Below are positions 14,467-14,950 of a stretch of 64,000 nt of DNA, one piece after another. The notes beneath the pieces were generated by a model. That model searched no databases. It was not told the DNA's origin and saw only the letters and a program-made list of their open reading frames with translations. Positions within the stretch are counted from its first letter, which is position 1; each line of letters starts with the position of its first letter. The translations under genes were made by a program, and so were the position numbers. The stretch spans positions 1 through 64,000 of IMG/VR virus record IMGVR_UViG_3300035498_000844. One strand, given 5' to 3'. The DNA is from a virus. Its lineage: Duplodnaviria; Caudoviricetes.

Positions 14467-14615
14467 GTTATTAACCTCTCTTTCCATGCTTTCCTTTTGT
14501 TTCTAAAAATATTATAACAAAAAATTTTTAAAATGTCAATAGTTTTTTTAAAAAGTTTTGAGCGGCATTTCAACCGCTCAAAGGAAAGGAGGGAAACAAT
14601 GTTAGGATAGTAAAA

Positions 14616-14727
14616 TGGAGCTTACAAGATTTGAACTTGTGATACTTTGGTTAGAAGTGGTTTGCCTTGTATATTTTTCTTTCAAGTTACCATCTTAAAA
14701 GAAAATATATCCATAGCCTAAAGCCCC
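14616..14727 (-). ncRNA. tRNA-like RNA with a 16-bp hairpin inserted in the D arm
   Basis: Acceptor GGGGCTT/AAGCTCC, T arm ACAAG-TTCAAAT-CTTGT, inserted helix 14670-14709 capped by ATGGTAA, non-canonical loop CTAACCA. Confidence 0.75.
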
Positions 14728-14734
14728 AATTAAA

Positions 14735-14807
14735 TCTGCCTAATGGGATTCGAACCCATGCTCCCATGATTAAAAGTCATGTGCTTTACCAACTAAGCTA
14801 CAGGCAG
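14735..14807 (-). tRNA. tRNA-Lys(TTT)
   Basis: Canonical cloverleaf: CTGCCTG/TAGGCAG, GCTT/AAGC, CATGA-CTTTTAA-TCATG, ATGGG-TTCGAAT-CCCAT; CCA not encoded. Confidence 0.95.
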
Positions 14808-14865
14808 TCAATGGGACTAAAAAGTCCCAAAGGAAAGGAGGAAAAGCAATATTTAGTTAATAAAA

Positions 14866-14950
14866 ACTGCCTAGTAAGATTTGAACTTACATTAGTCTAT
14901 CTTCACAAAATTGTATCTTCAAACTGTTTTACCTTTTAAACTATAGGCAG
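14866..14950 (-). ncRNA. tRNA-Lys-like RNA with a 20-nt anticodon loop
   Basis: CTGCCTA/TAGGCAG, GTTT-AAAAGGTA-AAAC, GTTTG-(20 nt)-TAGAC, GTAAG-TTCAAAT-CTTAC. Confidence 0.8.

Follow-up and report, generated by a model that had tools for sequence, protein, structure and literature searches.

Several described RNAs have features in common with the phage locus reported here. The t-elements of plant mitochondria and the mascRNA of MALAT1 are non-decoding tRNA shapes which set the sites where RNase P and RNase Z cut. The c4 RNA of bacteriophages P1 and P7 is made on the same transcript as its target, upstream of it, and is set free by RNase P; with two seed loops specific to a single target (icd/ant), it then blocks ribosome binding at the downstream gene. 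RsaE/RoxS and LhrC/Rli22 repress initiation with an unpaired C/U-rich motif complementary to the Shine-Dalgarno sequence and carry a hairpin; they are transcribed from their own promoters, present their motifs in several loops and control specific regulons. RoxS is described as a C-rich small RNA of Bacillota (PMC8216469). The 3'ETS-leuZ of the glyW-cysT-leuZ operon of E. coli is reported to be a 3' spacer which follows the last tRNA of the operon directly, has the operon's terminator hairpin at its end and is excised during tRNA maturation (Lalaouna et al. 2015, as summarised in PMC8166272); it is a cellular RNA which sponges RyhB and RybB by base pairing and needs Hfq (PMC8166272).

The locus studied here contains a module in which a tRNA-type structure is followed by a trailer with a pyrimidine tract and a hairpin. 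Like 3'ETS-leuZ, the trailers come directly after a tRNA-type structure with which they share a putative transcription unit, and end in a hairpin, their excision being predicted. Unlike 3'ETS-leuZ, they are phage elements with an anti-Shine-Dalgarno seed and with no sequence similarity to it, and the "tRNA" is often a mere minihelix, so that the trailer looks like the main product. With the C-rich small RNAs the trailers share the hairpin and also the feature that marks Shine-Dalgarno-occluding small RNAs, namely an unpaired pyrimidine motif complementary to ribosome-binding sites, as indicated by folding and duplex energies, repression being in this case a prediction; they differ from them in having a single linear tract, identical to the 16S rRNA tail and placed behind a tRNA-like structure. 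Unlike c4, no target specificity was found for the module, and the Rfam C4 model gave no match in positions 14400-15100 at E-values up to 10. The tRNA-like parts are tRNA-shaped, non-decoding and proposed to be a processing signal, as are t-elements and mascRNA, but these are eukaryotic or organellar and define the ends of mRNAs or long non-coding RNAs, not an anti-Shine-Dalgarno trailer. No Rfam family reached its threshold on the trailers or on tRNA-like C: the match to rli22/LhrC (RF01457) was at chance level (20 bits with a gathering score of 80, E = 1.1) and RsaE gave none. BLAST against deposited phages revealed only a similarity of the tRNA-Lys to Lak phages. The authors of the initial annotation knew of no described phage RNA with this layout, and our literature search agrees with this, as it found no phage tRNA trailer with an anti-Shine-Dalgarno sequence. 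Judged by sequence or model, the putative module belongs to none of its nearest analogues (3'ETS-leuZ, C-rich small RNAs, c4 and tRNA-like signals).

The window, which is the whole stretch of 64,000 nucleotides analysed, comes from a 73.8-kb IMG/VR virus record of an uncultured gut or rumen phage, estimated to be 56% complete and with a G+C content of 29.6%. Standard code 11 gives long ORFs over most of the window and, for this reason, an alternative genetic code was dismissed as the cause of the odd tRNAs. The genes around 14.5-15.5 kb are directed along the minus strand. The elements on this strand, in the order in which they would be transcribed, are the following:

15411..15439, minus strand: sigma-70-type promoter-like site, TTGACA-17-TATAAT, 12/12, which would drive the operon (promoter-site scan)
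14975..15358, minus strand: 127-aa gene, first in the putative operon, with weak winged-helix similarity and with homologues upstream of the module in relatives (protein comparison)
14952..14967, minus strand: GC hairpin GGGGGC-GAAA-GCCCCC, without a U-run, between the 127-aa gene and tRNA-like B (sequence; absent from the terminator list)
14866..14950, minus strand: tRNA-like B, a tRNA-Lys paralogue with intact acceptor, D and T arms and an "anticodon" loop of about 20 nt (Rfam, alignment)
14808..14865, minus strand: trailer B, 58 nt, with an unpaired 5' part, the box at 14829-14841 and a hairpin at 14813-14828 (sequence, folding)
14735..14807, minus strand: canonical tRNA-Lys(UUU) (ARAGORN, Rfam)
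14616..14727, minus strand: tRNA-like C, with acceptor stem (G3:U70, A73), T arm, a 54-nt hairpin in place of the D arm and 4 bp left of a Lys-type anticodon arm (Rfam, folding, alignment)
14550..14615, minus strand: trailer C, 66 nt, with an unpaired 5' part, the box at 14580-14592 and a terminator-like hairpin at 14557-14582, then ACUUUUU (sequence, folding)
14511..14539, minus strand: promoter-like site of the next gene, 12/12, directly after the module and conserved in relatives (promoter-site scan)
14059..14487, minus strand: 142-aa gene, which probably starts at 14466, at a conserved ATG that follows GGAAAGAGAGG (comparison with relatives)

The promoter-like and terminator-like sites indicate that the promoter, the 127-aa gene, tRNA-like B with its trailer and hairpin, tRNA-Lys, and tRNA-like C with its trailer and terminator are one putative operon. 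The order from B to the last hairpin given in the initial annotation was confirmed. On the plus strand no promoter-like site was found directly upstream of the module, the nearest ones being a site downstream of it and, some 600 nt upstream, a weak match (9/12); the module is likely transcribed from the minus strand. Also on the minus strand, between 13 and 26.5 kb, about two dozen (~26) small genes each have a TTGACA-17-TATAAT promoter and a near-identical short leader, AUCAAAAGGAAAGAGGAAA..AUG, and their starts look like a repeated promoter-leader cassette.

On the Rfam tRNA model (RF00005, gathering score 29), the tRNA-Lys(UUU) scored 73.7 bits and tRNA-like B 44.8 bits, the model skipping 26 nt in the anticodon arm of the latter. 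tRNA-like C had no match to this model even at E-values up to 10, and ARAGORN called neither B nor C a tRNA. An anticodon arm consisting of a 5-bp stem and a 7-nt loop presenting an anticodon is absent from both: the best stem at this position of B closes a loop of about 20 nt, and the anticodon-type stem of C has 4 bp in a shifted register, this hairpin (ACUUCUAACCA) aligning with the anticodon arm of the tRNA-Lys (ACUUUUAAUCA). The acceptor stem and most of the D arm are common to B and the adjacent tRNA-Lys. For its part, C has an acceptor stem of 7 bp (GGGGCUU/AAGCUCC), a T arm of 5 bp and, in its 54-nt D-position hairpin, a loop (AUGGUAA) which resembles a D loop. The alanine marks of C (G3:U70 and A73) were given no weight because they are present in no orthologue. 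C, of 112 nt, matched the tRNA-like domain of the tmRNA model (RF00023) with 17.2 bits, below the gathering score of 47 and with 308 model positions skipped; with this sub-threshold score, no tmRNA call by ARAGORN and its short length, C does not qualify as a tmRNA, a class defined by a tRNA-like domain with alanine identity, a tag reading frame and pseudoknots. From these alignments and folds, B and C look like tRNA-Lys-type paralogues which lost decoding and kept the top half formed by acceptor and T arm. None of the three tRNA-type genes encodes CCA, and tRNA genes without an encoded CCA are the RNase Z substrate class in Bacillota.

The 13-mer CCTCCTTTCCTTT is present on the minus strand at 14829-14841 and at 14580-14592, with no mismatch, and no third copy exists anywhere in the 73.8-kb record. 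Between the discriminator base and CCTCC there are 24 nt in B and 23 nt in C. The box is directly followed in trailer B by the hairpin GGGAC-TTTTTA-GTCCC (14813-14828), which has no U-run and whose next element is the tRNA-Lys, and in trailer C by GAGCGG..CCGCTC within the terminator-like stem at 14557-14582. All this confirms the shared trailer sequence that was noticed initially, with CCTCC 24-25 nt after the discriminator and a hairpin at once; likewise, the canonical tRNA-Lys was rightly said to have no such trailer, since C begins after a gap of 7 nt. Folding of the predicted processed RNAs gave the box a mean unpaired probability of 0.99 in trailer B and 1.0 in trailer C. The transcribed strand of the leftward gene block at 1-29 kb contains CCTCC three times, two of which are the boxes, and owing to this near-absence the box was dismissed as a general trait of the terminators or tRNAs of this phage; the other tRNA cluster, at 2076-2292, has no box. 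The alignment of one trailer with the other begins at their first base, includes the whole box and covers about 37 nt; the hairpins, by contrast, have no common sequence and the T stems of B and C differ by compensatory changes, which suggests an old duplication with the box kept constant in both copies. Being paralogues, B and C are not independent evidence.

Relatives were found with the 142-aa protein and comprised 47 viral and 80 metagenomic loci, mostly from rumen or gut samples by their record names; the 127-aa protein as query found none. The module, defined as T-loop, pyrimidine tract and hairpin, was present in 18 of the 122 scanned junctions between homologues of the 127-aa and 142-aa genes. 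These 18 loci have a T-loop UUCRANU in a stem of 5-7 bp together with a 7-nt strand able to close an acceptor-like helix, the spacer from the top half to the tract is always 19-26 nt, and the tract is separated by 1-5 nt from a hairpin of 6-18 bp, whose stem sequence is unrelated between lineages and which has a U-run behind it in about half of the orthologous loci. L006/L275 and L328 have a canonical tRNA-Lys as the tRNA part, L230 has what is called as a tRNA-Arg(CCU), and there is a bare minihelix of 39-60 nt in L003/L212/L269/L270/L273, L276-280, L291, L293 and L297, Rfam finding no tRNA in L003. The acceptor registers of the minihelices are ambiguous in some loci and, in a shuffling test, a 7-nt complement within 130 nt was not rare by itself; because this test is weak, minihelices were judged by the presence of the T-loop motif, by a contiguous helix and by the uniform spacing. 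In L003 (2815-2870), and also in L212, L269, L270 and L273, the upstream gene ends within the minihelix, its stop codon being part of the 5' acceptor strand AGAGTAG, and cleavage by RNase P in these relatives would leave the upstream message without a stop codon.

The tract reads CCUCCUUUC in 9 of the 12 distinct lineages, and this commonest form is identical to the conserved tail of 16S rRNA. The remaining lineages have CCUUUCC-type tracts without CCUCC (CCUUUCCUU in L274, UCUUUCUUUCCUUU in L328 and UCCCUUUCCUUUCCC in L347), so that the CCUCC initially attributed to the trailer is not invariant. With one exception, the tract is preceded by a UUG at a distance of 4-8 nt; spacers are otherwise unrelated between lineages and the downstream promoter is conserved. 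The match to the Firmicute 16S tail noted initially holds for the commonest tract and not for its upstream flank, where UUG-N3-6 differs from the GAUCA that precedes CCUCC in 16S rRNA. In the same way, the two-part RNA first proposed, a tRNA top half joined to an anti-Shine-Dalgarno module, finds its layout again in the relatives, but the trailer is not confined to remodelled tRNAs, as it also follows a normal tRNA-Lys (L006/L275, L328). Since the three-part layout is kept while the hairpin sequences are unrelated, top half, tract and hairpin behave as the conserved units. The ruined anticodon arms of B and C and the lineages that keep a minihelix alone point to selection on the top half and the trailer, and the hairpin seems to be kept for more than termination alone, because about half of them have no U-run and that of B is followed by tRNA-Lys. 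The relatives have 10-30 tRNAs per phage, of which about one has a trailer. Most relatives, including the 67%-identical L004/L005, do not have the module, which is therefore dispensable.

In the family loci, which were chosen regardless of box content, CCTCC is found 9-45 nt after 11 of 36 distinct tRNAs, where permuted 5-mers reach 0-1; among unrelated IMG/VR loci it has 3 such occurrences in 50, as many as the permutations. A scan of IMG/VR for T-loop-N28-42-CCTCCTTTC gave at least 44 tRNA-linked matches, with many tRNA specificities, and at least 20 of them with a strong hairpin after the box, in comparison with 13 tRNA-linked matches, 2 with a hairpin, for a composition-matched 9-mer in a complete IMG/VR scan. 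On the strength of this difference, the putative design recurs in phages beyond the family marked by the 142-aa protein, the enrichment being a lower bound. In bacterial genomes, 18 of the 80 matches listed follow a tRNA and 3 have a hairpin after the box, and for this latter reason the module was dismissed as a host feature.

The purine-rich ribosome-binding sites of this phage have the tract as their exact complement, the plus-strand structural genes having plain AAGGAGG sites. Duplexes of the trailers with phage start regions average -10 to -14 kcal/mol, compared with -5 kcal/mol for random coding segments, a complementarity that follows automatically from the tract sequence. With the start regions of the gene class at 13-26.5 kb the trailers reach a mean of -14.3 kcal/mol and a generic 16S tail -11.3 kcal/mol, a gap which is absent in the other two gene classes. 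It had been suggested at first that the trailers bind Shine-Dalgarno sequences of host mRNAs. Nothing in these energies favours host over phage messages, and the phage's own leader type is the one complemented best.

As read from its sequence, the putative operon contains a working tRNA-Lys and, twice, an RNA module of three parts: the top half of a tRNA (acceptor stacked on T arm), about 20-25 nt of spacer with a predicted unpaired CCUCCUUUCCUUU at its end, and a stable hairpin. We tentatively favour the explanation that the module is a candidate small RNA whose ends are set by tRNA-processing enzymes and whose predicted function is to occlude purine-rich ribosome-binding sites, a possibility to which we give somewhat less than even weight. 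It is favoured because the tract is predicted to be unpaired, is complementary to the phage sites and, with those of the gene class at 13-26.5 kb, is calculated to pair more strongly than the 16S tail. The top half would be recognised by host RNase P and RNase Z, which would cut on both sides of it and release trailers of about 58 and 66 nt protected by their 3' hairpins. The exposed tract could then pair with ribosome-binding sites of the form AAAGGAAAGGAGG, where the 16S rRNA tail of the same sequence would be its competitor, and initiation would fall as a result; the trailer RNA would be expected to inhibit 30S binding to, and translation of, AAAGGAGG-led messages, be they from the phage, the host or both. 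Against this explanation, almost all strong ribosome-binding sites are potential partners of such an RNA, which would matter only if it were very abundant and would hit the phage's own genes too; nor was the tract seen to co-vary with a particular target. The dispensability of the module, its restriction to about one of the 10-30 tRNAs of each phage and the stop codon that RNase P cleavage would remove in L003-type relatives also count against it.

Several trailers resemble, in reverse complement, the adjacent start region, and a first permutation test for cognate pairs of trailer and start region gave p = 0.017. However, control segments from inside genes had the same cognate advantage, a focused test of tract versus start region in 11 lineages gave p = 0.25-0.42, and the p = 0.001 of the broad set rose to 0.07 in its AT-rich subset, with similar controls. 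Consequently, we rejected the idea that the trailer is an antisense specific to the adjacent gene start, with which it would form an inverted repeat around the promoter. With the controls equal, the focused test null and the signal of AT-rich phages at control level, the tract is better regarded as a generic complement than as a gene-specific one.

The main rival of an RNA acting on ribosome-binding sites in trans is an insulator acting in cis. According to it, in read-through RNA the tract would fold onto the Shine-Dalgarno sequence of the next gene, about 100 nt downstream, so that only transcripts from that gene's own promoter are translated. Minimum-energy folds of the hypothetical read-through RNA did pair the tract with the downstream Shine-Dalgarno sequence in 9 of 10 orthologous loci, the module at this junction always stands directly before a strong promoter and a gene, and read-through is plausible given that about half of the hairpins have no U-run. 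Nevertheless, in such an AU-rich RNA the sole CU-rich and AG-rich segments pair in almost any fold, and the tract has no cognate preference for its own downstream start region. Moreover, copy B precedes tRNA-Lys and C instead of a gene, and has the identical tract despite a fully diverged hairpin; in other phages (L075/L109) the module is likewise followed by another tRNA. An insulator also leaves the constant tRNA top half unexplained, and we consider it unlikely.

Less likely still is that there is no dedicated RNA function. In that case the tract would be either a relic, such as a gene start copied in inverted orientation, or a plus-strand Shine-Dalgarno sequence serving a mini-ORF, and the tRNA-like structures would be decaying pseudogenes next to a terminator. 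Trailer C does read AGGAGG-N6-ATG-TTA-GGA-TAG on the plus strand, some orthologues (L003, L276) have an ATG at ribosomal spacing, and the dispensability of the module would fit. In contrast, a start codon is missing at this place from copy B and from most orthologues, and among the 44 tRNA-linked matches listed 25 have no ORF start and 11 have only short ORFs. The plus-strand gene start or mini-ORF was rejected, as the start codon is not conserved and no promoter-like site lies directly upstream; this also removes the objection, raised beforehand, that plus-strand transcription of a Met-Leu-Gly mini-ORF would account for the box. A relic is opposed by the enrichment of CCTCC behind tRNAs over permuted 5-mers (11 versus 0-1) and by a tract that stays constant while spacer, hairpin and tRNA body diverge completely, which is unlike neutral decay.

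Finally, it is very improbable that an abundant exposed CCUCCUUUC works as a decoy, titrating a protein which binds the 16S tail or a nuclease which cuts it (candidates would be a toxin directed at rRNA or a factor associated with the ribosome) without pairing to messages: the commonest tract is identical to that tail and predicted to be single-stranded, the module accompanies tRNA-Lys in several lineages and phage tRNAs can act as counter-defence against anticodon nucleases, but CCUCC is wholly missing in three lineages (L274, L328, L347), the conserved flank UUG-N3-6 mismatches the 16S sequence upstream of CCUCC, and no candidate partner gene adjoins the module, the neighbouring 127-aa and 142-aa proteins matching no known family.

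Returning to the anti-ribosome-binding-site RNA, a broader and more doubtful proposal is that the module represents a recurrent device, in which a minimal tRNA top half makes host tRNA-maturation enzymes produce an RNA displaying the mRNA-docking sequence of the ribosome, either to reprogramme initiation globally (for instance, shutting off Shine-Dalgarno-led host or early phage messages) or to decoy attackers of the 16S tail. If this were true, the occurrence of one design behind many different tRNAs, in IMG/VR phages that are unrelated to each other, would point to a class of viral riboregulators that is widespread and undescribed, produced with neither a dedicated promoter nor a dedicated processing enzyme. 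It would also explain why phages keep "broken" tRNA genes, the top half being their useful part, and an abundant anti-Shine-Dalgarno RNA would give a direct handle on initiation during infection. In practical terms, the design is compact enough to be of use in synthetic translation control, and the pattern T arm, 19-26 nt, CCUCCUUUC, hairpin could be used for annotating phage tRNA regions.

Some minor observations concern related arrangements. At another position, L226 (435-580) has a canonical tRNA-Lys, a degenerate tract CUUUCCUCUCUUUU and a canonical terminator, and it may be a decaying or variant module. In L259 (G008), L260 (G009) and L265 (G024) a different conserved trailer, CCTCCACGTGG..CTTGGGTAA.GC.AATAGT, lies about 25 nt after a tRNA, with no hairpin directly after; it is distinct from the module. 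The 142-aa gene family is present in two copies within a few kb in G020, G023 and G033 (L236/L257, L239/L247 and L251/L254), one case being divergent. Regarding the 9-mer CCTCCTTTC, it is found 15 nt after tRNA-Trp(CCA)/tRNA-Asn in a group of contigs (L015, L018, L029, L034, L042, L050, L061, L082, L086, L096, L103, L106 and L116) where the box is inside a long-range stem, GGACTACTGC ... GCAGTAGTCC, with its strands about 50 nt apart, a different presentation of this sequence. In the window itself, the minus-strand tRNA cluster at 2076-2292 includes a tRNA-shaped RNA of 126 nt with four stems and a loop of about 58 nt replacing the anticodon loop, which scored 43.7 bits on the Rfam tRNA model; two bases upstream of it there is a 90-nt "tRNA-Ile(UAU)" whose anticodon stem pairs poorly and which contains a long additional stretch.
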